From IMG/VR virus record IMGVR_UViG_3300042141_000203: DNA of 64,000 nucleotides. One strand, 5' to 3'. Each line of letters starts with the position of its first letter. Position 1 is the first letter of the stretch. This DNA comes from an uncultured virus (IMG/VR IMGVR_UViG_3300042141_000203). Lineage: Duplodnaviria > Heunggongvirae > Uroviricota > Caudoviricetes. The notes beneath the pieces were generated by a model, which saw nothing but the letters and a program-made list of their open reading frames with translations, was not told the DNA's origin and did not search any database. The position numbers were made by a program, and so were the translations under genes. Shown here one piece after another: positions 3-62,798 of the stretch.

Positions 3-1061
3 TTCGACGTCGGCCCGGTCCTGCGGCCGGCCTACCCAGCGACCGAGACGTTCGTCAGCCGCCGGGCGCTGGAGATGGCGAAGCGTGCCATGTACGCCGC
101 TGGCGACTTCGTGGCCTGGGACGGCGGTGTCGGCCGCATCGAGTACGTCATGGCCGAGGGCACGATTGGCGACTATTCGGAGGAGCCGATCGAGGCCACG
201 CCTGACGATCCGGCCGCCCTGGTGCGGAAGTACGACTTCGAGGACGGCGTCTGGGAGGAGTCGGACTACTTCGTTGCCAAGAAGATGAGCGAACTGGTTT
301 CGGCCAGCAACATCATGGGCGAGGCCCCGGCGTTCATCGACCAGCGGGCCGTCGGCCTCAAGCCCACAGCGGGCATGGCCGCAGCCGCCAAGCGCGGCCT
401 GCGGCTGCACGAGGAAGGCAAGTCCGGGGACGGCCTGAAGCCGGAGACCGTGGCCCGCGCCAACAAGATCGCCCGCCGCGAGGAACTGACCGAAGACCAT
501 GTCCGCGAGATGAACGCGTGGTTCGCACGTCACGAGTCGGCGAGCAAGTCGCCCGGCTGGGACAAGGCCGGCGAGGAGAAGCCCGGGTTCGTGGCGTGGC
601 TGCTGTGGGGCGGCACGCCGGCGAAGAACTGGGCGTCTCGCAAGGTGGCGGCCATGGAGTCGGCCGGCCGCGCCGAGCCGCAGGCTGACGTCGAGGTCCG
701 CGCCGAGGAAGATCCGATGGAGACCCTGTCTCCGGCCAACTTCGCGCTCTACGAGGCCATCGAGCAGATTGCCGTCGAGAACGGCCCGTGGCCGCAGGAA
801 GGACCCGACGGCGCCCACTACATGACCGAGAATCCGTTCGCCGAGCGCGGCATGAAGTGCCAGAACTGCATCTTCTGGAACGAGGGCGGCTCGTGCGACG
901 TCGTTGACGGGCAGATCGACCCCAACGCCGTCTGCAAACTCTGGGTCATCCCCGAGGAGCGGCTCGCGCAGCCTGCGAAGCGCAGCGTGGATCCGGCGGC
1001 AGAGGCGGCCCGCCTCAAGGCCAAGGCACTGGAGACGGCCGCGCATGGACGTCCTCGCTGA
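3..1061 (+). CDS. HK97-family prohead protease (5' truncated) with long multidomain C-terminal extension
   Basis: Frame open from nt 3 reads FDVGPVLRPAYPATET (protease C-terminal motif) and continues in frame into the 75..1061 ORF; extension ends in a CxxC...C...C HiPIP-like domain. Confidence 0.8.
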   Translation, partial: FDVGPVLRPAYPATETFVSRRALEMAKRAMYAAGDFVAWDGGVGRIEYVMAEGTIGDYSEEPIEATPDDPAALVRKYDFEDGVWEESDYFVAKKMSELVSASNIMGEAPAFIDQRAVGLKPTAGMAAAAKRGLRLHEEGKSGDGLKPETVARANKIARREELTEDHVREMNAWFARHESASKSPGWDKAGEEKPGFVAWLLWGGTPAKNWASRKVAAMESAGRAEPQADVEVRAEEDPMETLSPANFALYEAIEQIAVENGPWPQEGPDGAHYMTENPFAERGMKCQNCIFWNEGGSCDVVDGQIDPNAVCKLWVIPEERLAQPAKRSVDPAAEAARLKAKALETAAHGRPR

Positions 1062-45516: not shown

Positions 45517-46470
45517 TCAAGCTTCAACGGGCTCGGCGGCCTCCTCGGCGGGCTCCTGGTCGGCGGCGCCGCCGGGCTGGAGCGAGTGCAGATAAGCGGC
45601 CGCCCGGCTGGCCGCGCTGGCCGCCGTGAATATGGCCCGCTTATCGGCCTTCAACACTTCCAGCCAAGCGGCCAGGTAGTTGACGTGCTCCGGGTGCGGG
45701 GAAGCCTCGAGCCCTAGGTCGGCGGCCAGGAAAGCCGCGGCCAGCTCGGCCACGAGTTCCTCCGCCGCGTACGCGTGCCGCTCAAACTTCCCCGCCAGGT
45801 CACGATCGAGCCGCGACGCGTGCCCGGTCCAGTGCGCCAGCTCGTGTAGGGTCGTGCAGGCATGGGCCTCGGCCGTTTCGAACGTGGCCGCGTGCGGCAC
45901 CTGGATATAGTCGCCGCTCGGCGAGTAGTAGGCGCGGGCGCCGCCGGCCCGTATCTCGGCCCCGGTGGCCGCGGCGAAAGCGGCGGCGGCCTCGTGCGGC
46001 TGCACGTCGCCGGCGGGCGGCGGGACCTGGGCCGTGTAATGCGCGGGGAGCCCGTCGCATTGTTCGGCATTGAACACGGTATACGCCTTCAAAAACGGGA
46101 TTTTCTTCTCGGCCGTTGTGCCGTCGGCGCGGGCCTCCTCTTTCGTGAACGTGGACGCGTAGACCACGGTCGTCCCCTTCTCTCCCTTGCGGACGTGGCC
46201 GCCCAGCTCTTGAGCCTGCTTGAACGTAAGCCAAAGCGGCGCCGTGTACCCGGCGGCCTCGGCGGCGATCCACAACACGAGCACGTTTACCCCCTGGTAC
46301 GGTTGGCCGTTGTGGCGCAGCGGGCGGGACACGGGGCCAGCGGCGTGCCCGGCCTTCCACGGCTTGTGCCAGGGGGCGACGTTGCCGGCCTCCAGGGCGG
46401 CGACGATTGAATCGGTTACGGTCTGGTACACGTCGGGGCGGGCGGTTCGGGTAGTGGTTCGGGCGGTCAT
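45517..46470 (-). CDS. ardC: ArdC-family antirestriction ssDNA-binding/zincin protein
   Basis: PWHKPW, YQGVNVLVLW, WLTFKQA..LGGHVRKGEKG, VFNAEQ, HELAHWTGH..RLDR, YAAEELVAE. Confidence 0.92.
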   Translation of the reverse strand: MTARTTTRTARPDVYQTVTDSIVAALEAGNVAPWHKPWKAGHAAGPVSRPLRHNGQPYQGVNVLVLWIAAEAAGYTAPLWLTFKQAQELGGHVRKGEKGTTVVYASTFTKEEARADGTTAEKKIPFLKAYTVFNAEQCDGLPAHYTAQVPPPAGDVQPHEAAAAFAAATGAEIRAGGARAYYSPSGDYIQVPHAATFETAEAHACTTLHELAHWTGHASRLDRDLAGKFERHAYAAEELVAELAAAFLAADLGLEASPHPEHVNYLAAWLEVLKADKRAIFTAASAASRAAAYLHSLQPGGAADQEPAEEAAEPVEA

Positions 46471-53816: not shown

Positions 53817-54074
53817 ATGGCGACTCTCTACAAGATCAACGTGATGGATACGGGTTGCGGAGGAACATGGGCATCTTCCGGCGAGTCGTTACTGGTCGAG
53901 GGCCGGCAGATGGTTCGGCTGCCGCATGGTGCCATCCTGCCTGCCGACGGCTATCACGACACGATGGCCGCGGCCAAGCGAGCCGCGGCTGACGAGATCG
54001 ACGCTATTTGCCTGTCCCTGTCGAAGCAGGCTGCGAATCTGCGGCAGGAGGCCGGTGGGGAGCGTATGGCGTGA
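53817..54074 (+). CDS. Hypothetical protein
   Basis: ORF in operon. Confidence 0.5.
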   Translation: MATLYKINVMDTGCGGTWASSGESLLVEGRQMVRLPHGAILPADGYHDTMAAAKRAAADEIDAICLSLSKQAANLRQEAGGERMA

Positions 54075-54251
54075 ACCTGCGAAAGCCCCGCCGTGGGTGT
54101 AGTGGCAGTTGGTCATCCTGCCGCATCGGCCGCCAAGCAGTGAGAGGCGACGTATCCGCTGCAGCCGCCGACGCCTATCCGGGGCGGGCGACGGCAACCG
54201 CCCTCGAGCGGCGGGCCCGTGCGAGCCGGGCCGGGCGGGATGGAGGAAGCC

Positions 54252-54725
54252 ATGGATTTCAAGGACGCAATCCAAGCACTAGCAGGACGCAGGGCCGAGC
54301 TGCACGCCGGGCAGGCCAGCTCCAGGCCGTTGTCGGAGAACTACGAGGACGTGGGCATCGCCGGCGAGTTTGCGTTCGGCCAGTTCTGCGGGCTGATGCC
54401 CGACCTGGACGAACGGCCGGACGGCGATGGCGGAGTCGATTTCGTGCTGCCGCTGTTGTTCACCGTGGACGTGAAAACCGCCAGGAAGGCCCACAACCTC
54501 ATTCACGAGCAGGGAAAGCCGTTCGCTGACGTGTTCGTGCTCGCGGAGTATTTCGATGCAACTCGAAACGCCCGCCTTGTGGGCTGGGAATACGGCCGCA
54601 AGCTGGCCGCCGCGCCGGTCCGCGATTTCGGCTACGGGGTGTTGAATCACTACATCGCACGTTCGGAGCTGCGGCCAATGGACGAGCTGGCCGCCAGGAT
54701 CGCCAAGCAAGGAGTAAGGCAGTGA
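54252..54725 (+). CDS. Hypothetical protein, possible PD-(D/E)xK nuclease fold
   Basis: GIAGEFAF...DGGVDFV...VDVKT. Confidence 0.5.
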   Translation: MDFKDAIQALAGRRAELHAGQASSRPLSENYEDVGIAGEFAFGQFCGLMPDLDERPDGDGGVDFVLPLLFTVDVKTARKAHNLIHEQGKPFADVFVLAEYFDATRNARLVGWEYGRKLAAAPVRDFGYGVLNHYIARSELRPMDELAARIAKQGVRQ

Positions 54726-55645
54726 CACACTGGTTTCCACTATTCGGTCGCGACTTCCTCGCGGCCACGACGGGATGGACGGCCGAGGAGCGCGGCCACT
54801 ACATCACGCTGCTGATAGTCCAATGGGAACAAGGCGCCCTGCCGGACGACGTGAAGCGTCTGGAGCTGATTTCGCCAGGCATCCGCTCCTGCTGGAAGGC
54901 GATCGCCGACAAGTTCCCGATCTGGCAGGACGGCCGCCGGCGCAACACCAGGCTCGAGCACGAGCGTTCTAAGGCCGAGGGCCGCAGCGAGAAGGCTCGT
55001 CAGTCGGCATCGCGACTGTGGGCCGGCAAGCGTCCGGAAGCACCAAAGCAGGCCGATTGCCAACCTCCCGCAGAACCCCCATCCTGCCAGAATGGCATAT
55101 GCGATGGCATATGCGATGGCATATGCGAACGCATCAGCGAACGCACCAGCGAAGGCATATGCTCGGCACCATGCTCGGCGGATGCTTCCACAACCACATA
55201 TATTTCATCATCATCAACGCGCGAGAAAAACGTGGCCCCGGAGGGCTGGGAAGGCTTCCGCGAGGGGTGGAATACGGGGGCCTCCGCAGGACACCGGAGG
55301 CCATGGCTATCGGCCTCCCCGCCCCCTGCCCTGTCTGACCGCCTGGCGGAGCCCGGCTGGCTGGACGAGGCCGCCAGGGCCATGCCCATGCTCCAGGCCT
55401 GCCGGCGGTTCGCCTCGCCCGTCAGCCTGGGCCAGTTCTGCAAGCCGGGGTTCGTGGCCGAGGTCCTGGGCGGGTACTACCGCGACCGGCCGCGCGGCCG
55501 GCGGGAGCCCGACGCCCCTGCGGCTCCGCAGGTCGACCCGGCCTTTGAGGCCGCGGCACGGGCGACGATGGCGCGCGAGGAAGCCCGCCGCAAGGCGGAG
55601 CACCGCCGCCTGGACGAGCTGGCCGCCACGGGGGGCGACGCATGA
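54722..55645 (+). CDS. Replication initiator (DUF1376/YdaU-like N-terminus)
   Basis: WFPLF..DFLAAT..W..EERG.YI.LL..QW..G.LP; internal iterons. Confidence 0.8.
   Translation: MTHWFPLFGRDFLAATTGWTAEERGHYITLLIVQWEQGALPDDVKRLELISPGIRSCWKAIADKFPIWQDGRRRNTRLEHERSKAEGRSEKARQSASRLWAGKRPEAPKQADCQPPAEPPSCQNGICDGICDGICERISERTSEGICSAPCSADASTTTYISSSSTREKNVAPEGWEGFREGWNTGASAGHRRPWLSASPPPALSDRLAEPGWLDEAARAMPMLQACRRFASPVSLGQFCKPGFVAEVLGGYYRDRPRGRREPDAPAAPQVDPAFEAAARATMAREEARRKAEHRRLDELAATGGDA
55092..55215 (+). repeat. Iteron-like 12-bp tandem repeats plus AT-rich tract (putative origin)
   Basis: ATGGCATATGCG x3 followed by degenerate in-phase copies, then CATATATTTCATCATCAT. Confidence 0.75.
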
Positions 55646-55842
55646 CGCCGCGGCAGCGCGAGGTCTGCGACGCGATCGTCACGCTCACGGAGCGTATGGG
55701 CCATCCGCCGACGCTGCGCGAGGTCGGCGCGTTTCTCGGCACGCTGCCGAGTGACGTTCACCAGAAGCTCGCGCGGCTGCGCCGTGACGGGCGCGTCGAG
55801 TGGAAGCCGCATCAGTGCCGGACGCTGCGTGTGGTGAAATGA
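55642..55842 (+). CDS. Stand-alone LexA-type DNA-binding domain protein
   Basis: MTPRQREV.D.I......GHPPTLREVG..LG......VHQKL.RL.R.G......RTL; no peptidase domain. Confidence 0.8.
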   Translation: MTPRQREVCDAIVTLTERMGHPPTLREVGAFLGTLPSDVHQKLARLRRDGRVEWKPHQCRTLRVVK

Positions 55843-55885
55843 AAGTGTGCAACCGATGCAACGCGGAGAAGGAGACAAACGGGCT

Positions 55886-56116
55886 ATGTCAGAACTGCGG
55901 CAGTCCAGAGTTTCGGATAGCGTCGAGCACCCCGCCCACTACACGACGCACCCAAGCGGCATCGAGTGCATCACAATCGCGGAAGCGTTCAACTTCAACG
56001 TCGGCAACGCCATCAAGTACCTGTGGCGTGCCGGACTCAAAGGCGACGCCATCGAGGACCTGCGGAAAGCGGCGTGGTACATCAACCGCGAAATCGAAAG
56101 GCGCACCAGTGAGTGA
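55886..56116 (+). CDS. DUF3310 protein
   Basis: DSVEHPAHY...IECI...GNAIKYLWRAG.KG..EDLRKA.WY. Confidence 0.85.
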   Translation: MSELRQSRVSDSVEHPAHYTTHPSGIECITIAEAFNFNVGNAIKYLWRAGLKGDAIEDLRKAAWYINREIERRTSE

Positions 56117-56666
56117 TCTGGTCGATCGTCTACGCGAGAGCGTCAAGGCCTGCCGTGCATTGGATCGCTCGGCGCTGCTTGAGGAGGCGGCAGAGGAGAT
56201 TGAGCTACTGCGCCGCGAGCGTGACGCCACGATGGAGGACTACCGCAGGCTTTCGACGCGATGGGACACGGCGGTCGCCGAATGGGCAGCGGAAACGCGA
56301 AAACTTCATGCGATGATTGACGCCCTACGAGCCATTCACGACGCCGCGCCGGCGGCGATAGCCCGTACAGACGCCGACAGGGACCGCACCGATAAAGCGG
56401 CACCCCAACCCGGCGAGGGCACCGGCGATATTGTGACGCGGCTGCGGCAGACGCGGGCCAACATGATCGGCACCGATGACGAGGATCACTATTTCGACTG
56501 CCATGAGGCGGCGGCCGAGATTGAGCGATTGCGGTCGTGGGGCAGGCTCACCGACGAGGAGCGGGCGGCCGTTGCAGTCGCCATTGATGAGTGCGAGTCG
56601 ATGCCGGTGACACGATCCCGTGTCGCTGCCGATACGCTGCGGAGCGTTCTGGAGCGATTGAAGTGA
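56109..56666 (+). CDS. Hypothetical mosaic protein (DLVDRLR...EAA.EIE.LR repeats, LTDEER tail)
   Basis: Internal repeated motif; GTG start. Confidence 0.6.
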   Translation: MSDLVDRLRESVKACRALDRSALLEEAAEEIELLRRERDATMEDYRRLSTRWDTAVAEWAAETRKLHAMIDALRAIHDAAPAAIARTDADRDRTDKAAPQPGEGTGDIVTRLRQTRANMIGTDDEDHYFDCHEAAAEIERLRSWGRLTDEERAAVAVAIDECESMPVTRSRVAADTLRSVLERLK

Positions 56667-56714
56667 TAACGCCAGCGATCAGCGGCTCCGTCCGCTGCAT
56701 CGCGTGGTTCTCAC
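56663..56714 (-). mobile_element. attC site 1 (integron cassette recombination site), reverse orientation
   Basis: Minus strand: gtgagAAC-cacgc-gatGcagc...gctgatc-gctggc-GTTatcac, canonical R''-5-L''(8)/L'(7)-6-R' spacing. Confidence 0.8.
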
Positions 56715-56725
56715 AAGGAGCAAGC

Positions 56726-57043
56726 ATGGCTGACGGCAAAGGATGCAAGTGTGCGGCCCATTCGGAATCCGAGTGCGGCTGCGATGCCGATTGGACGCCG
56801 CAAGAGGTGTACGACCTGCGGGCCGAAAATGAGCGGCTCAAAAAAGCCATTCGCCGCATAGCAGAGCAGGACGCCACGCTGTCGGTATGCGACGGCAACG
56901 TGACAGTGACCATGGACGCCACGCTCACCGACGAGGAGCGGGAGGCGATTGCCTACGCTGCAAAAATAGTGCGGCTTTCTGGTAAAAAGGTAGACCGGAT
57001 GCGGTCGGATGTTATGGCGGCACTGCTCGCCAAATCTGAGTGA
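56726..57043 (+). CDS. Cassette-borne hypothetical protein (CxC motifs, LTDEER tail)
   Basis: AAGGAG RBS; lies between attC1 and attC2. Confidence 0.65.
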   Translation: MADGKGCKCAAHSESECGCDADWTPQEVYDLRAENERLKKAIRRIAEQDATLSVCDGNVTVTMDATLTDEEREAIAYAAKIVRLSGKKVDRMRSDVMAALLAKSE

Positions 57044-57129
57044 GAACACGGAAGATCAACGGCGGCCACGCGAGGACTCACCATGACACATGACGCTGAA
57101 GGGCCGTCCGTTGCATCGGCTGGTTCTAT
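57041..57129 (-). mobile_element. attC site 2, reverse orientation
   Basis: Minus strand: atagAAC-cagcc-gatGcaac-ggAcggcc...ggccgcc-gttgatc-ttccgt-GTTctca. Confidence 0.85.
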
Positions 57130-58183
57130 GCCGCTCACATTCGGGTCACTTTTCGCAGGCATTGGAGGCTTTGACCTTGGACTTGAACGCGCTGGGATGC
57201 GATGCGAATGGCAAGTCGAAATCGACCCATACGCCAGAGCCGTGCTCGCCAAGCACTGGCCCGACGTGCGCCGCTGGGAAGACGTGCGGACGTTCCCGCC
57301 GAAGGAAGGCGAGTGGGGCGTCGATGTCATCTGCGGCGGATTCCCCTGCCAAGACATCAGCGTTGCCGGAAAGGGTGCCGGCCTCGCCGGATCGAGGTCC
57401 GGTCTTTGGTACGAATACGCTCGGATCATTGGCGAGCTACGACCCCGCTACGTCATCGTGGAGAACGTCGCAGCTCTCCTTACTCGAGGGGCCGATGTTG
57501 TTCTCGGGACGCTGGCCTCGCTCGGGTATGACGCGGAATGGCACGTTATTCCAGCTTCAGCCGTTGGTGCGCCGCACCGACGGGACAGGCTCTGGATCAT
57601 TGCCTACGCCAACTGCGGACAAGTGCATCGGCTGCGAGCCGACCCCGGAGATGGCGGAGCGGTTCCGGCGCAAGGGCAGCAGCGGGAGTTTCGTCGAGGC
57701 GATGGCTGCGAAGATGTATCCGACACCATCGGCATCGCAGATGCCTTGCGAGGGGACGGTTCGGCTGGCTCGCCAGCGATGGCTGGACGGCGACTGCACG
57801 CTGGAGGAAGCCAACGCAATCGCGGGACGCGATGTGCGGGACAAGCAGGGCAAGGTGCCTGCGATGTGGCCGACGCCGAAGGCATCGGCCGCAGGGCCGG
57901 ACTTTGCCAAGACAACGCGGAGCAAGACGGGCATCAGCCTAGCGACGGCTGCGGCCATGTGGCCGACGCCGACCACGCAGGACGCATCGAACAACGGCGG
58001 CCCGAGCCAGTATCAGCGGAACAGCTTGCCGCTCAATGCGCCGGCTGGTGGAGCGTTGAACCCGACGTGGGTCGAGTGGCTCATGGGGTTCCCGCTCGGG
58101 TGGACCGTCTGCGATGCCTCGGGAACGCGGTCGTCCCGCAGATCGTCGAAGTCATCGGGCGAGCAATAGTTGAGGCGGCGTAA
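57083..58183 (+). CDS. C5 cytosine DNA methyltransferase (cassette-borne)
   Basis: SLFAGIGG, GGFPCQD, ENV, APHRRDR, LGNAV motifs. Confidence 0.92.
   Translation: MTHDAEGPSVASAGSMPLTFGSLFAGIGGFDLGLERAGMRCEWQVEIDPYARAVLAKHWPDVRRWEDVRTFPPKEGEWGVDVICGGFPCQDISVAGKGAGLAGSRSGLWYEYARIIGELRPRYVIVENVAALLTRGADVVLGTLASLGYDAEWHVIPASAVGAPHRRDRLWIIAYANCGQVHRLRADPGDGGAVPAQGQQREFRRGDGCEDVSDTIGIADALRGDGSAGSPAMAGRRLHAGGSQRNRGTRCAGQAGQGACDVADAEGIGRRAGLCQDNAEQDGHQPSDGCGHVADADHAGRIEQRRPEPVSAEQLAAQCAGWWSVEPDVGRVAHGVPARVDRLRCLGNAVVPQIVEVIGRAIVEAA
57090..58169 (+). CDS. Overlapping +1-frame ORF: putative second methyltransferase subunit (TRD repeats plus motif IX)
   Basis: Four xPTP repeats and LNPTWVEWLMGFPLGWT; true start unknown. 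Confidence 0.6.
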   Translation: MTLKGRPLHRLVLCRSHSGHFSQALEALTLDLNALGCDANGKSKSTHTPEPCSPSTGPTCAAGKTCGRSRRRKASGASMSSAADSPAKTSALPERVPASPDRGPVFGTNTLGSLASYDPATSSWRTSQLSLLEGPMLFSGRWPRSGMTRNGTLFQLQPLVRRTDGTGSGSLPTPTADKCIGCEPTPEMAERFRRKGSSGSFVEAMAAKMYPTPSASQMPCEGTVRLARQRWLDGDCTLEEANAIAGRDVRDKQGKVPAMWPTPKASAAGPDFAKTTRSKTGISLATAAAMWPTPTTQDASNNGGPSQYQRNSLPLNAPAGGALNPTWVEWLMGFPLGWTVCDASGTRSSRRSSKSSGEQ

Positions 58184-58304
58184 GGCATAGAACAAGAATT
58201 AGGCTGCGAACTGGCAGCCTAATTCGGCGGCGAGTGCGGTTATAGGCCGAGACGCAGCAGGCGGCCGGCGTTATCCGGCGAACACTGGACTAGGGGATTT
58301 TGAG

Positions 58305-58643
58305 ATGGGCCGCGCATCACGCGAGAAAGGCAAAAGAGGCGAGCGCGAGGCTGCGGCCGAATTGGGCGCGGCCCTTGGTGTCGCCGCGCGTCGTGGCGTC
58401 CAGTTTCACGGCGGCCCTGACTCGCCGGATGTGGTGATCGAGGCCGCGATCCACGTCGAGGCCAAGCGTGTTGAATCGCTGCAGCTCTACCCGGCCGTCG
58501 AGCAGGCGACGAGCGACGCGCCGCCTGGCAAGGTGCCGATCGTCTGGCACCGTCGAAACAACAAGCCGAGCGTGGTGATTGTGGAAACGTCGAGGCTCGT
58601 GGACCTGGCCCGCGCAATCGTGGCCGCGGCGGAGGGTCGCTAG
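58305..58643 (+). CDS. Holliday junction resolvase-like nuclease
   Basis: SREKGKRGEREAA...PDV...HVEAKR. Confidence 0.75.
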   Translation: MGRASREKGKRGEREAAAELGAALGVAARRGVQFHGGPDSPDVVIEAAIHVEAKRVESLQLYPAVEQATSDAPPGKVPIVWHRRNNKPSVVIVETSRLVDLARAIVAAAEGR

Positions 58644-60751
58644 TGGTCGCGAAATCGAAAGAGGCGATCGAGAACCGCCGCAAGGCGACGCTCGAGCGTG
58701 GCCGCGCGACGACGCGACTCGGCGCGGACATTGGGGCGATTCCAAAAACCGCGGTGCCGGACCGGCGCGACGCGTGCCGGCTCGACCTGGCGAAGTTCCT
58801 CGTGGAGTATTTCCCAAACTCCACCGGCCTCTCGCCATTCTCCGACGACCATCTGCGGGTGATCGGCAGGATTCAAGACTGCATCCTGCGCGGAGGCCGT
58901 TTCGTCAACGCGGTGTACCGCGGCTTCGCGAAATCGACGATCAGCGAAAACTCGCTCATTTGGGCGATGCTCTACGGGCATCGCCGATTCGGTGCGATCT
59001 TCGCGGCCGAGGCGGACCTGGCGGCGAAAGCCATCACGTCGATCAAGCTGGAGCTGGCCGAAAACGACCTGCTGTTTGAGGACTTTCCCGAGGTCTGCGT
59101 GCCTGTGCGGGCCCTGGAGGGAAAGCCGCAACGCTGCCTGTCGCAGACCTGCGGCGGCGAGCACACTCATATCCGCTGGAACGCCGATTCCATCGTCCTG
59201 CCGGCGATCAAGGGCTCGGCGAGTGCCGGGTCGATCATCTTCTCGCGCGGCCTCACGGGCTCGATCCTGGGACTGCGGCACAAGTCGCCGGACGGCACCC
59301 AACTGCGGCCGGACTTCGTGATCGTGGACGATCCGCAGACGCGGGAAAGCGCGGCCTCCACGGTGCAGGTGCAGAAGCGGCTCGAAATACTTTCCAAGAG
59401 CGTGATGAAGCTCGCCGGGCACACGAAAAGCATCGCGTGCGTGGTCAATGCGACGGTGATCCAGGTCGACGATATGGTCGACCAGCTTCTCGACCCGCGG
59501 AAATACCCGGCCTACCAGGGCGAGCGTATTCCGATGGTCCGCTCGTGGTCCAAGGGTCACGAAGAACTGTGGCTCGGCAAGTATCGCGACCTACGCAACA
59601 CGTTCGACAAGGACAAGGTGGGCGACCAGGCCCGTGCCCATCGCGAGGCCAATGAGTTCTACTTGGCGAATCGCGTGGCGATGGACGAGGATTGTGCGGT
59701 GTCGTGGGCGAGCTGCTTCGACCCCGACGCGGAACACTCCGCGATCCAGCACGCGTACAACGCGCTGATCGACGACGGCGAGGACGTGTTCGCGAGCGAG
59801 TTCCAGCAAAAGCCGCTCGCCAACGAGGCGAAGTCGGCGGCCCTTGCCGGCGAGGACGTTCGCAGCCGCGCCGTGAACGTGCCGCGGTGGATCGTGCCGG
59901 CCGGACTCGACACGCTCACTGCCTTCGTGGACGTGCAGGAAAAGCTCCTCTACTGGTCGATCGTCGCCTGGGGTCACCAGCTCCGCGGCCACGTCGTCGC
60001 CTACGGCACCTACCCGGAGCAATCGCGCGCGTACTTCACGCTCCGCGACGCCCGTAAGACGCTGGTGGCGGCTGCTGGCGGGGCCGGCCTGGAGGCGGCG
60101 ATCCATGCCGGGCTCGAGCGGGTGGCTATCGAAATACTCGACCGCGAGTTTTCTCGCGAAACGGACGATGCGGTACTCCGGGTCGCGCAAATGTTCGTCG
60201 ATGCCAACTGGGCACAGACGGCCGGCGTGGTCCGCGACTTCGCCAGGCGGTCACAGTGGGGGCCGCGCGTGATCCCGACGCACGGGCGATTCGTGGGTGC
60301 GTCCGGCTCGACCCTCTCGGACAAGCGGCCTGACCGCGGCGAGCGAGTTGGGGCAAACTGGCGAACGAGCACGATCTTGAAGCAGCGGCACGTCTTGTAC
60401 GACACGAACGCGTGGAAGTCGTTTTTCGCCGCGCGGATGAAGCTGCCGGCGAGCGATCCGCAGGCCTTCACGATTCACGCCGGCAATCACGAGCTGCTGG
60501 CCGAGCACCTGACGAGCGAGTATCCGACTCGCGTGGAGGCTCGTGGCCGCGTCGTGGACGAGTGGCGGATGATCCCAGGCCGCGATAACCACTGGCTCGA
60601 TTGCGTGGTCGGCGCGGCCGTGGCCGCCTCGTTCACTGGCATTTCGGCCGTCGGTGCCGAGGCGCGGCCGCTGGCGACAGTGCGGCGGTCGATCTCGAAG
60701 GAGCAGATGGCGGCGAAGCGCGCCGAGCTTTTGGCCCGTTTAGGCCGCTAA
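58643..60751 (+). CDS. Terminase large subunit (GpA-like nuclease domain)
   Basis: RGFAKS Walker A, VIVDD Walker B, LTAFVDVQ..LYW...AW, DNHWLDC. Confidence 0.9.
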   Translation: MVAKSKEAIENRRKATLERGRATTRLGADIGAIPKTAVPDRRDACRLDLAKFLVEYFPNSTGLSPFSDDHLRVIGRIQDCILRGGRFVNAVYRGFAKSTISENSLIWAMLYGHRRFGAIFAAEADLAAKAITSIKLELAENDLLFEDFPEVCVPVRALEGKPQRCLSQTCGGEHTHIRWNADSIVLPAIKGSASAGSIIFSRGLTGSILGLRHKSPDGTQLRPDFVIVDDPQTRESAASTVQVQKRLEILSKSVMKLAGHTKSIACVVNATVIQVDDMVDQLLDPRKYPAYQGERIPMVRSWSKGHEELWLGKYRDLRNTFDKDKVGDQARAHREANEFYLANRVAMDEDCAVSWASCFDPDAEHSAIQHAYNALIDDGEDVFASEFQQKPLANEAKSAALAGEDVRSRAVNVPRWIVPAGLDTLTAFVDVQEKLLYWSIVAWGHQLRGHVVAYGTYPEQSRAYFTLRDARKTLVAAAGGAGLEAAIHAGLERVAIEILDREFSRETDDAVLRVAQMFVDANWAQTAGVVRDFARRSQWGPRVIPTHGRFVGASGSTLSDKRPDRGERVGANWRTSTILKQRHVLYDTNAWKSFFAARMKLPASDPQAFTIHAGNHELLAEHLTSEYPTRVEARGRVVDEWRMIPGRDNHWLDCVVGAAVAASFTGISAVGAEARPLATVRRSISKEQMAAKRAELLARLGR

Positions 60752-60813: not shown

Positions 60814-61032
60814 TTGGCAGACAACCAGGACGTGCTCGACGCCATCGCTGCAAATCTCGCGCAGCCGCGTCGTGCGCGGACGGACGCCGGCGAGGTTGAG
60901 CAACACGAGCTGCACCGCCAGGTCGAGGCTGCCAAGTTCGTGATGGGGCAGCGGGCCAACGCCAACGCCGCCAAGTCGCCGTGGCTGTCGATGCGGTTCG
61001 CCCGCCAAGAGTCTCCGGGGGCGATCGGCTGA
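60814..61032 (+). CDS. Small head-tail joining (gpW-like position) protein
   Basis: Between terminase and portal; GAGG RBS, TTG start. Confidence 0.55.
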   Translation: MADNQDVLDAIAANLAQPRRARTDAGEVEQHELHRQVEAAKFVMGQRANANAAKSPWLSMRFARQESPGAIG

Positions 61033-62798
61033 TGCCACGATCCACCCGAAAAACCGAAACCAAGGCCGAATTGCAGGCCACGGTCGCGAAGCAGAAGGTC
61101 GCGATCCAGACCATGCTCCGTGCCCGCTACGACGCGGCGCAGACGACGAACCTCAACCAGCGGCATTGGTCGATGGCGGATTACTACTCCGCCGACGCGG
61201 CTCTCGCCCCTGACGTGCGGCGGAAGATGCGGGCCCGCGCCCGCTACGAAATCGCCAACAACTCCTACGCGGCCGGCATGGCATCGACGTGGGCGAACGA
61301 CCTGGTGGGCACTGGCCCGCGGCTGCAGCTCGACCTAGGGCCGGACGCCGACCCGAATCGCGTCCGCCGCGTGGAGCTGGCGGTCTACGATTGGATGGTC
61401 GACATTGACCTGGCCCGAAAGCTGCGAATCTCCAAGATCGCCAAGTTTTCCGACGGCGAGGCCTTCGGCCTGTTGACGACGAACCGCCGCCTCCGCGGCG
61501 TGCAGCTCGACTTGAAGCTCGTCGAGGCCGATCAGATCGTCGACCCGCAGGGAGTTCCCAATCCCGGCGAGGTCGATGGCGTTCGTTTCGACACCGACGG
61601 CAACGTCACTGACTTCTGGATTACTCGGCATCATCCCGGCAGCCTACTCCCAGGCTGGTCCCTGGATGGCCGCTGGGAGAGTGCCGAGAACGTCCTGCAC
61701 TGGTTCCACGCGACGCGGCCCGGCCAGCATCGCGGCGTCGGCGAGATCGTCCCGGCCCTCGAGCTGTTCGCGATGCTCCGCCGCTACACGTTGGCGGTCG
61801 TGACCGCGGCGGAAACGGCGGCCGACTTCGCGGCGATCCTCAAGACGACGATGCCGGCCGACGGGGCCGGTGCCGCCGGCATCGACGCGTGGGAAACCAT
61901 GCCGATCGTCCGCGGCATGATGATGAGCGCACCGGAAGGCTGGGAGCCATACCAGCTCAAGCCCGAGCAACCGACGGGCACCTACGACTCGTTCGTGCGG
62001 CGGATTCTCAACGAAATCGCCCGTGCGGTGAATATGCCGTACATCGTCGCGGCGATGGATTCGTCGAGCGCGAATTACTCGTCGATGCGCGGCGACTACC
62101 TCGTCTACCGCAAGCACCAGGCGACCGAACGCGGCGACCTGGAGCGGGTGATGCTGGACCCCCTGCTGGCGAAGTGGCTCGACGAGGCGGCATTGGTGCC
62201 GGGCCTTCTGCCCGACGGCCTGCCGCCGGTGGCCGAGTGGAATTGGACGTGGACGTGGGACGGCCACGAGCACGTCGATCCGACGAAGGAGTCGGAAGCC
62301 GAGGCGATGCAGCTCGAAACAAACACGGCGACGCTCGCGGAGATTTGCGCGAAGCGCGGCCGCGATTGGCGTGTGGTCCTGCGGCAGCGTGCGGCCGAGC
62401 GGCAACTGGCCCGCGACCTGGGCCTGACGGCCGAGCCCGCCCCGGTGGCCGCGGAGGACGAGGACGTAGACCTGGAGGCCGCCGACGGCTATCGCCCGCC
62501 CCAGGCGGCTCGTGCCGCAGCTCGCCGCGGGCTCGACCTGCGGAGCGAGTACGGCCGCGGCGGGACTGCGGTGGGCATCGCGCGGGCTCGTGATATTGCC
62601 AACGGCCGGGCCCTCTCCATCGACACTATCGGCCGCATGGTGTCGTTCTTCGCCCGGCACGCGGCCTACAAGAAAAACCACACGGTCGACCCGCCCTCCA
62701 ACTCGTACATCTCGTGGCTCCTGTGGGGCGGTGACGCTGGCCGAGAGTGGGCGGAGCGTACCTGGAAGCGTGAGCAAGAAGCTGCGGAGGCAACATGA
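61032..62798 (+). CDS. Portal protein, lambda family, with extra C-terminal domain
   Basis: RARARYE..NNSYA, RPGQHRG, NYSSMR, HVDPTKE; C-terminal FFARH...WLLWGG domain. Confidence 0.9.
   Translation: MPRSTRKTETKAELQATVAKQKVAIQTMLRARYDAAQTTNLNQRHWSMADYYSADAALAPDVRRKMRARARYEIANNSYAAGMASTWANDLVGTGPRLQLDLGPDADPNRVRRVELAVYDWMVDIDLARKLRISKIAKFSDGEAFGLLTTNRRLRGVQLDLKLVEADQIVDPQGVPNPGEVDGVRFDTDGNVTDFWITRHHPGSLLPGWSLDGRWESAENVLHWFHATRPGQHRGVGEIVPALELFAMLRRYTLAVVTAAETAADFAAILKTTMPADGAGAAGIDAWETMPIVRGMMMSAPEGWEPYQLKPEQPTGTYDSFVRRILNEIARAVNMPYIVAAMDSSSANYSSMRGDYLVYRKHQATERGDLERVMLDPLLAKWLDEAALVPGLLPDGLPPVAEWNWTWTWDGHEHVDPTKESEAEAMQLETNTATLAEICAKRGRDWRVVLRQRAAERQLARDLGLTAEPAPVAAEDEDVDLEAADGYRPPQAARAAARRGLDLRSEYGRGGTAVGIARARDIANGRALSIDTIGRMVSFFARHAAYKKNHTVDPPSNSYISWLLWGGDAGREWAERTWKREQEAAEAT

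Follow-up and report, generated by a model that had tools for sequence, protein, structure and literature searches.

A stretch of DNA of 64,000 nucleotides from an uncultured virus of the Caudoviricetes (IMG/VR record IMGVR_UViG_3300042141_000203), hereafter called the window, very probably carries two genuine integron-type gene cassettes whose attC recombination sites belong to a family of Planctomycetota, in a freshwater phage without an integrase of its own. Such an arrangement is known as a CALIN (cluster of attC sites lacking integron-integrases). The cassettes are flanked by a conserved block of early genes on one side and by the resolvase-like and terminase genes on the other. Each unit consists of an attC site and its cargo, and bears the chimeric-site signature of integron arrays. 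Among related phages these units have been gained, lost and replaced, with the junction inside an AGAAC motif.

Two attC sites delimit two cassettes

Both sites have their top strand on the minus strand of the window; the plus strand is the bottom strand, which is the recombining one. attC1 (56663..56714) is of a short type and attC2 (57040..57130) of a long type, and the spacing between them is 326 nt. They were recognised by alignment, by folding in the case of attC1, and with R2, a covariance model built from the hairpin family described below. When both strands of the 64 kb were searched with R2, exactly two matches were obtained, attC1 at 58.5 bits (E 2e-17) and attC2 at 75.1 bits (E 3e-23). 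The window contains two copies of a degenerate right-arm pattern that none of 100 shuffled sequences contained, and the 24-nt right arms of the two sites are 88% alike. In attC1 the AAC triplet occupies 56668-56670 and the GTT triplet 56707-56709, with an unpaired C at 56698 and an unpaired T at 56691; the same parts of attC2 are AAC 57045-57047, GTT 57123-57125, C 57114 and T 57107. In both sites the unpaired bases sit on the arm opposite the AAC triplet and are separated by a stem of 6 bp; when numbering starts at the outer end of the 7-nt R'' box, as is assumed here, they occupy positions 16 and 23. The R boxes are TGATAAC and GTTCTCA in attC1, TGAGAAC and GTTCTAT in attC2. A first-pass annotation of the sequence had called the two sites canonical and had placed the ribosome binding site and the start codon of a methyltransferase gene inside the attC2 loop. 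The second proposal was borne out by a GAGGA motif and the ATG at 57083, both found in the loop; the 3' arm of attC2 moreover encodes a leader peptide, PSVASAGS. As to the first, the attC geometry and the positions were upheld, and the term canonical was not, since the R-box sequence, the length of attC1 and one of the unpaired bases depart from the class 1 consensus.

Two cassettes, both on the minus strand in attC polarity, are delimited by these sites. Cassette 1 (56670..57046, 377 nt) comprises attC1 and a small open reading frame (ORF), and its ends, GTTCTCAC (56707-56714) and GTGAGAAC (57040-57047), are complementary at 8 of 8 positions. Cassette 2 (57047..58192, 1146 nt) comprises attC2 and a gene for a C5 cytosine DNA methyltransferase, and its ends, GTTCTATGCC (57123-57132) and GGCATAGAAC (58184-58193), are complementary at 10 of 10 positions. 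These four strings, together with GTGATAAC (56663-56670), were recovered where the annotation had quoted them, and the complementarity that it had reported holds for both units. The array ends in an AGAAC half-site (58189..58193), with the crossover between 58192 and 58193. It is followed on the plus strand by a constant flank (58194..58225), AAGAATTAGGCTGC...GCAGCCTAATTC, which forms a perfect hairpin of 12 bp (fold z about -3) and occupies the place of an attI site when the array is viewed in top-strand orientation.

In integron arrays each site is chimeric, the first bases of a cassette pairing with its own R'' box. As a measure of this signature we used the contiguous complementarity that extends past the AAC and GTT triplets, comparing the right flank of one site with the left flank of the next. 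In the phage arrays 23 of 36 such cross pairs reached at least 4 nt, compared with 29 of 137 pairs of flanks belonging to the same site. The mean cross value was 3.86 against a shuffled mean of 2.14, and the observed mean was reached by none of 2000 shuffles. Chromosomal control arrays behaved alike, with 52 of 74 cross pairs and 18 of 90 same-site flanks at or above 4 nt, and means of 4.23 (cross) and 0.96 (shuffled). The two ends of a unit also show compensatory changes: the methyltransferase cassette reads GTTCTATGCC...GGCATAGAAC in the window and GTTCTAAGCC...GGCTTAGAAC at three other loci (L107, L124 and L152). Further compensatory pairs are GTTATGCC...GGCATAAC, GTTCACTGGC...GCCAGTGAAC and GTTAGCG...CGCTAAC.

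Cassettes are gained, lost and replaced among relatives

Related loci (n=76) were recovered from viral contigs via the terminase gene. One of them, L001, encodes a 100% identical terminase, and from 58189 on its identity to the window is likewise 100%. At the junction it reads GAGTGAGAAC directly followed by AAGAATTAGG; what it lacks is exactly 57047-58192, so that hairpin 2 and the methyltransferase are missing as a unit. To the left of the junction the identity is 88.8%, so that this point is also a mosaic boundary. We also found the stretch in 20 lake and freshwater metagenome runs from 14 studies. Contigs of four runs were compared over 55800-58800; they inform on the presence of a form and not on its frequency, and uncovered parts were not counted as evidence. 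A joint from 57042 to 58189, with 1146 nt skipped and an ambiguity of 6 nt, was present in two runs of different studies (X1 and X17). Run X1 contained both forms, including cassette-bearing contigs without any differences. The unit proposed in the first-pass annotation, 57047-58192, is therefore the one found to be missing in L001 and in the contigs of both runs.

Replacement is seen as well. Locus L004 keeps attC1 (94%) and attC2 (92%), and both the ORF between the sites and the cargo after attC2 differ from those of the window. The cargo behind its attC2 begins with the leader MTHD..GPSVASAGS, as in the window, and has complementary ends, GTTCTACC...GGTAGAAC. At three other loci (L054, L055 and L057) both elements are located downstream of the terminase, at a different genomic place. 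Five different cassette ends are joined to one flank, in which AAC is followed by AAGAATTAGG: the flank AAGAATTAGGCTGC...GCAGCCTAAT, preceded by AAC, is present in six viral contigs after four other ends (GGCTGAGAAC, AAATAGAAC, GAGTGAGAAC and GTCGGCGAAC), and GGCATAGAAC of the window is the fifth. The methyltransferase cassette for its part is preceded by other left flanks in L107, L124 and L152, three in all, and in L107 another attC site comes after it. In many relatives the LexA-like gene (in L007 the DUF1376 gene) directly joins the resolvase-like gene, and others have 0.5-1.3 kb of varied small genes at this place. Comparison at the predicted crossover points, where the annotation had expected variation, thus yielded the loss of cassette 2 and alternative cassettes; a site emptied of both cassettes was absent from the relatives examined, in which the loss of cassette 2 alone was seen.

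A further rearrangement concerns the ORF upstream of attC1. Its 3' part (56336-56666, 330 nt) matches an ORF in a cassette of locus L078, where it comes with a long-type attC and a start of its own. In the window the L078-type attC is missing and the ORF is fused to another 5' part of 76 codons, with a breakpoint that is intragenic and not at an AAC site. Other candidate joints in the contigs (such as 56710 to 57048, 56711 to 57043, 56713 to the region of 37037, and 56363 to 56663) were left unused, their short sides being only 21-25 nt long and lying in repeated elements.

The hairpins form a family with conserved attC geometry

In order to find further copies, viral contigs were scanned with a 20-letter right-arm pattern. 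It was found in at least 137 contig stretches, often in 2-4 copies per contig spaced 320-1700 nt apart. The 137 distinct phage elements comprise 59 of the short type (50-53 nt) and 78 of long types (88-103 nt). In an alignment of 146 elements, both sites of the window among them, AAC and GTT are invariant (146/146) and the R-box pairs 6-110, 7-109 and 8-108 show zero variation. Covariation is found in the stem, where pairs 27-90, 28-89 and 29-88 each show four pair types. A structure of 23 pairs, set manually since RNAalifold at its default gave 6 pairs only, leaves 92.6% of cells paired, and shifting the 3' partners by 1-3 columns lowers this to 26-43%. On the 3' arm, columns 99 (C) and 92 (T) are always unpaired, with 6 pairs between them, and the T is conserved. 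A Shine-Dalgarno sequence (SD) and an ATG are present in the loop of 44 of the 78 long elements, and 39 of these 44 open ORFs of at least 68 codons or run off the locus.

Some chromosomal loops, on contigs of metagenome-assembled genomes (MAGs) of Planctomycetota (L244, L238, L286 and L260), contain GGGAG and an ATG. The frame that starts there ends after about 31 codons, so that it probably does not mark a gene start. A right flank, GTTCTGCGTCCCCTGAAC, is common to four Planctomycetota genomes.

The family occurs beside integron integrases of Planctomycetota

Species-representative genomes were scanned with the 20-mer, which gave 120 loci, 25 of which passed a strict test for the left arm. 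Most of the remaining loci were dropped as coding-sequence coincidences in Vicinamibacterales and Acidobacteriota, or as random matches without a left arm. The loci with the full element are nearly all from Planctomycetota (Pirellulales, Planctomycetaceae, Rubripirellula, Novipirellula herctigrandis and Kuenenia-labelled MAGs). All five Planctomycetota genomes with the full element that were searched encode an integron integrase (IntI) above the curated cut-off of TIGR02249, and over 313 residues that of locus L271 shares 53% identity with IntI1. When same-strand copies were sought with R2, arrays of the family adjoined a TIGR02249-positive IntI at 4 of 6 IntI loci examined. L271 has 10 copies, with the end of the array 765 nt from IntI; L346 and L345 have 10 and 2 copies beside two IntI genes of one genome; and the Novipirellula locus L354 has 34 copies within 20 kb upstream of IntI.

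The model was also run, with filters off, on three class 1 integron plasmids. It matched the class 1 attC sites of dfrA14 (E 1.7e-6), catB3 (2.8e-5) and aadA5 (2.2e-4); matches to the attC sites of aac(6')-Ib-cr, OXA-1 and arr-3 were weak, and that of dfrA17 was not recovered on these plasmids. Every match was on the strand opposite the cassette genes.

These comparisons also fix the polarity of the phage sites. [quoted passage not shown] Because the AAC triplets of the window are on the 5' arm and the unpaired C and T on the 3' arm, the plus strand is the bottom strand of both attC sites. The phage genes and the model matches are on one strand, which means that the cassettes are inverted, and, being on the bottom strand, the cassette genes are read with the phage operon. 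The ORFs of the window thus differ from the promoterless ORF on the top strand upstream of attC by which cassettes are defined, since they share the strand of the model matches. The modelled strand of each of the four arrays next to IntI runs in the direction of the integrase gene, and the opposite strand carries the longer ORF in 7/7 cassettes of L288 (a Kuenenia-labelled MAG), 6/8 of L216, 7/11 of L256 and 5/9 of L271. The polarity read by the first-pass annotation, in which the minus strand is the attC top strand and the bottom strand holds the genes, thus agrees with the geometry of the extrahelical bases, the IntI-adjacent arrays, the chromosomal ORFs and the class 1 matches.

The phage lacks an integrase

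No recombinase family was found among the 69 ORFs of the window, and a tblastn search of the window with the IntI of L271 gave a best E value of 0.67. The earlier annotation, which had seen no integron integrase in the window, was right on this point, and the result extends to relatives: at E <= 0.001, TIGR02249 matched none of five related phage records, three of which are at least 96% complete. All 14 control genomes gave sub-threshold matches to TIGR02249. Nor was a tyrosine recombinase of any kind matched in the related phage records at E <= 0.001. With no IntI beside its array the window does not hold a complete integron; with two attC sites 326 nt apart and no IntI in 64 kb it holds a CALIN. 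As an integrase is lacking in the window and in all five related records, the action of a host IntI in trans is inferred and not shown.

Alternative explanations

The hairpins could be regulatory modules of the phage, stem-loops acting as translation starts or terminators, that are shuffled by homologous recombination between conserved intergenic sequences. Shuffling by such recombination has been proposed for the promoter-stem-loop cassettes of T4-type phages. The translation starts counted above in the loops of the long elements agree with such a role, as do the conservation of the elements (92-94%, versus about 81-85% for the flanking genes) and the existence of other mosaic breakpoints, for instance the one at 56336 within an ORF. 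Homologous recombination, however, predicts neither the complementarity of the cargo ends and its compensatory changes nor the loss of hairpin and cargo as one unit at AGAAC. It also leaves unexplained the IntI-adjacent bacterial arrays with ORFs on the other strand and the recognition of class 1 attC sites by R2, and we consider this explanation very unlikely. It is also unlikely, if slightly less so, that the sites are attC-like and are moved in the phages by another enzyme, such as an unrecognised phage recombinase or a host tyrosine recombinase of the Xer or another type. The lack of IntI in the phage records examined, the inversion of the cassettes and the lack of any cargo common to host arrays would suit such an enzyme, but in sequence and geometry the sites hardly differ from those of IntI-flanked arrays, the phage records are devoid of tyrosine recombinase matches at the threshold given above, and IntI is encoded in each of the five genomes that carry the element.

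That the hairpins arose by chance, or by tandem duplication of a small gene with its downstream stem-loop, hardly deserves consideration. The modest z-scores of the folds would fit chance, and the paralogy between the C-terminus of the upstream ORF and the small ORF of cassette 1, orf105 (33 nt at 88%, with a period of 377), would fit duplication. Both are refuted by hundreds of copies elsewhere, in phages and in genomes, that show covariation; duplication is further at odds with attC1 being of the short and attC2 of the long type, and with the differing ORF and cargo of L004. Transposons of the IS200/IS605 type, REP/RAYT elements and transposons with terminal inverted repeats were rejected, as there is one hairpin per unit and the empty form in L001 is without hairpin and cargo together.

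Several observations weigh against integron cassettes as the identity of these units. The R boxes do not follow RYYYAAC/GTTRRRY, the class 1 consensus, of which only the AAC and GTT triplets fit, and the nearer unpaired base is a C where G is usual. attC1, at about 50-52 nt, is below the published attC range of 57-141 bp, as is the short type as a whole (50-53 nt), while attC2 and the long type (88-103 nt) are inside it. The fold energies of both hairpins are unexceptional (z -1.2 to -2.5); since their stability does not distinguish them, the case rests on comparison. The training of R2 included about 25 chromosomal copies. At the IntI loci of G001, G003 and G005, no array was found on the 3' side, which was the side fetched; the array of G001 is on the 5' side, and the contigs of G003 and G005 stop within about 0.5 kb 5' of IntI. 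Between the phage loci and the chromosomal arrays compared here there were 0 alignments of at least 130 nt in the cargo, and thus no sign of direct exchange with host arrays, and the link to the host is an indirect one. Finally, turnover is deduced from contigs only, and the junction ambiguity of 5-6 nt also fits deletion between AGAAC microhomologies.

Cargo and neighbouring genes

The methyltransferase gene (57083..58183, plus strand) matches PF00145 (E 1.3e-45, residues 19-177), phrog_363 and phrog_1008, and has a two-frame layout. Motifs I-VIII are encoded in the frame of 57083, whereas the target-recognition part (WPTP repeats, LNPTWVEWLMGFPLGWT) is in the +1 frame, within an ORF at 57090-58169; with RVDRLRCLGNAVVPQ the coding returns to the first frame, which is open throughout. 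The same layout is found in L107, L152, L124 and L355 (GenBank MW202627.1), one of which is annotated as a single coding sequence. The +1 reading has 517 matches among database proteins, mostly without a Pfam domain, and a canonical relative, P0119, has its whole methyltransferase in one frame. Possibly, a gene for the small domain is nested in the +1 frame inside the gene for the large domain; +1 and -1 recoding is the other possibility.

orf105 (56726..57043, plus strand) encodes a small protein with an 'LTDEER' motif, has AAGGAG 6 nt before its ATG and matches no Pfam family above the cut-off. Small proteins with the motif 'LTD(A/E)ERE', encoded in the window at 56543-56575 and 56920-56952, recur in tandem in the variable regions of L002, L003, L009 and L016; this family is found both in cassettes and where no attC is present. 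In L078, a phage contig 98% identical to the window over 56336-57127, the cargo behind an attC2-type site (711-928, minus strand) consists of RNA genes, namely a 103-nt tRNA (RF00005, 52.3 bits) followed by a DUF3800-VIII RNA motif (RF03075, 43.4 bits). The tRNA is detected with Rfam and not by ARAGORN, which suggests that it probably carries an insertion. In the window, a scan of 54000-60000 against Rfam, which is without an attC family, gave no match.

The G+C content of the window is 60-73%. A run of plus-strand genes extends from about 51.7 kb to its end, and begins with CsrA-like, AAA_24/Sak4-like and DUF1376 primosomal-like genes. Upstream of the cassette site this run continues with a gene for a 66-residue protein made of a LexA DNA-binding domain only (55642..55842; PF01726, E 1.4e-14), a DUF3310 gene (55847-56116) and the upstream ORF (56109..56666), which encodes 185 residues of no known family and whose TGA stop codon (56664-56666) is within the R box of attC1. 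Past the array, conserved phage genes resume with a Holliday-junction-resolvase-like gene (58305..58643), which matches a PHROG family named 'RusA-like' and the PDDEXK_15 endonuclease family, the latter below the cut-off. The large terminase (58643-60751) and portal (60981-62798) genes follow, all on the plus strand. Elsewhere in the window, an ArdC-like anti-restriction protein with ArdcN and zincin peptidase domains is encoded at 45517-46470 on the minus strand, in a block that also contains a Prim-Pol gene. When 50,697 deposited phage genomes were searched at the DNA level for distant matches, only the methyltransferase gave any. As no deposited record covers at least 80% of the query, there is no close relative of this phage among deposited phages.

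The LexA-domain gene beside the cassette site is conserved in most relatives. Many integron integrases are under the control of LexA and the SOS response (see PMC3108266). It is conceivable that the phage LexA-domain protein acts on the expression of host intI, and a tie between this protein and the cassettes is speculative.

Discussion

Integrons are usually seen as gene-capture devices of bacteria. In a single lake sample, forms of the same phage that have a cassette coexist with forms that lack it, and relatives differ in the cassettes that they have at one site; cassettes therefore turn over in phage genomes.

A mechanism can be proposed in which a host IntI, acting in trans during infection, would fold the bottom strand, which is the coding strand of the phage. 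Recombination between two attC sites would then lead to excision and reshuffling. Insertion might take place between an attC site and the flank in which AAC is followed by AAGAATT, at an existing attC site, or at another GTT site. The cassettes would be expressed by read-through of the phage operon, with many attC loops supplying a ribosome binding site, an ATG and a short leader peptide. Orphan methyltransferases of phages protect against restriction, and the C5 methyltransferase of cassette 2 may likewise shield the phage DNA from restriction by the host. More tentatively, and with a probability that we put somewhat short of even, a widespread lineage of freshwater Planctomycetota phages would run an integrase-less 'phage integron': inverted cassettes would be read by the phage operon; the attC hairpins would have been remodelled as translation starts, the loop providing SD and ATG and the L''/R'' arm coding for a leader peptide that unrelated proteins have in common; the conserved hairpin flank would be an attI-like receptor; and a host IntI under SOS control would cut and join these units during infection.

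CALINs of phages, some of them with methyltransferases, are already described in the part of Qi et al. 2023 (PMC9892861) that deals with them, so that their kind is known and the idea is not new. That part reports 17 phage CALINs with 5 methyltransferases among the cassettes, shows that IntI1 recombined 5 of 6 phage attC sites tested, and argues that phage methyltransferases protect against restriction. Usable attC sites were thereby demonstrated in a few cultured phages. The array of the window resembles these CALINs in having at least two attC sites, no IntI and a methyltransferase as cargo. It differs from what is described there in that its sites correspond in sequence to the attC family of a single host phylum, its genes are on the bottom strand, the loops hold SD and ATG, and gain, loss and replacement at the crossover are seen in relatives and in public runs. 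Section 3.4 of that article names no planctomycete phage; the phages are listed in full in its tables and supplements. Sedentary chromosomal integrons with taxon-specific attC sites are on record for Planctomycetota in portions of Ghaly et al. 2021 (PMC8352920) and Cury et al. 2016 (PMC4889954). The phage arrays have the attC sequence family, the geometry and the chimeric-site pattern of these integrons. The chromosomal arrays have an adjacent IntI, long-loop sites of about 90 nt and ORFs mostly on the top strand, whereas the phage arrays have no IntI, a 51-nt short type (59/137), loops with translation starts and ORFs on the bottom strand.

Compared with class 1 attC sites, in the account of site structure in PMC5027507, the phage sites share the AAC and GTT triplets, a bottom-strand crossover between the second A and the C, unpaired bases opposite the AAC, the 6-bp stem and the conserved T. 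They are unlike class 1 sites in their R boxes (AGAAC and GTTCT), in the C as first unpaired base, in an attC1 shorter than 57 bp and in the inversion of the gene relative to attC; their unpaired spacer is 3-4 nt long, compared with the usual 5-6. In passages of Loot et al. (bioRxiv 10.1101/2022.09.11.507474), IntI1 is reported to insert cassettes in E. coli at non-att sites of the simple form G/WT, named attG, where the slash marks the crossover. Such sites, known for IntI1 in E. coli, may offer a route of entry with expression from a nearby promoter and re-excision. The deduced insertion target in the phage, read on the top strand, is ...CTTG/TTATCA....

No report was found of cassettes in planctomycete phages, of inverted cassettes with starts in attC loops, or of natural cassette turnover among phage relatives, in a literature search whose coverage stops short of subscription journals and supplements. 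What is new here is the inversion of the cassettes, the use of attC loops as translation starts, and the natural acquisition and loss of cassettes by lake phages of a widespread lineage. Through the match of their sites with the attC type of one phylum, uncultured phages can be tied to a host, and the host IntI is indicated as the enzyme; more than 130 natural site variants are a resource for probing recognition by integrases other than those of class 1. An attC site that doubles as ribosome binding site, start codon and leader changes the picture of cassette expression, because no Pc promoter is needed. If the tentative 'phage integron' is real, even non-temperate phages would gain a site-specific means of swapping anti-defence and small RNA genes.

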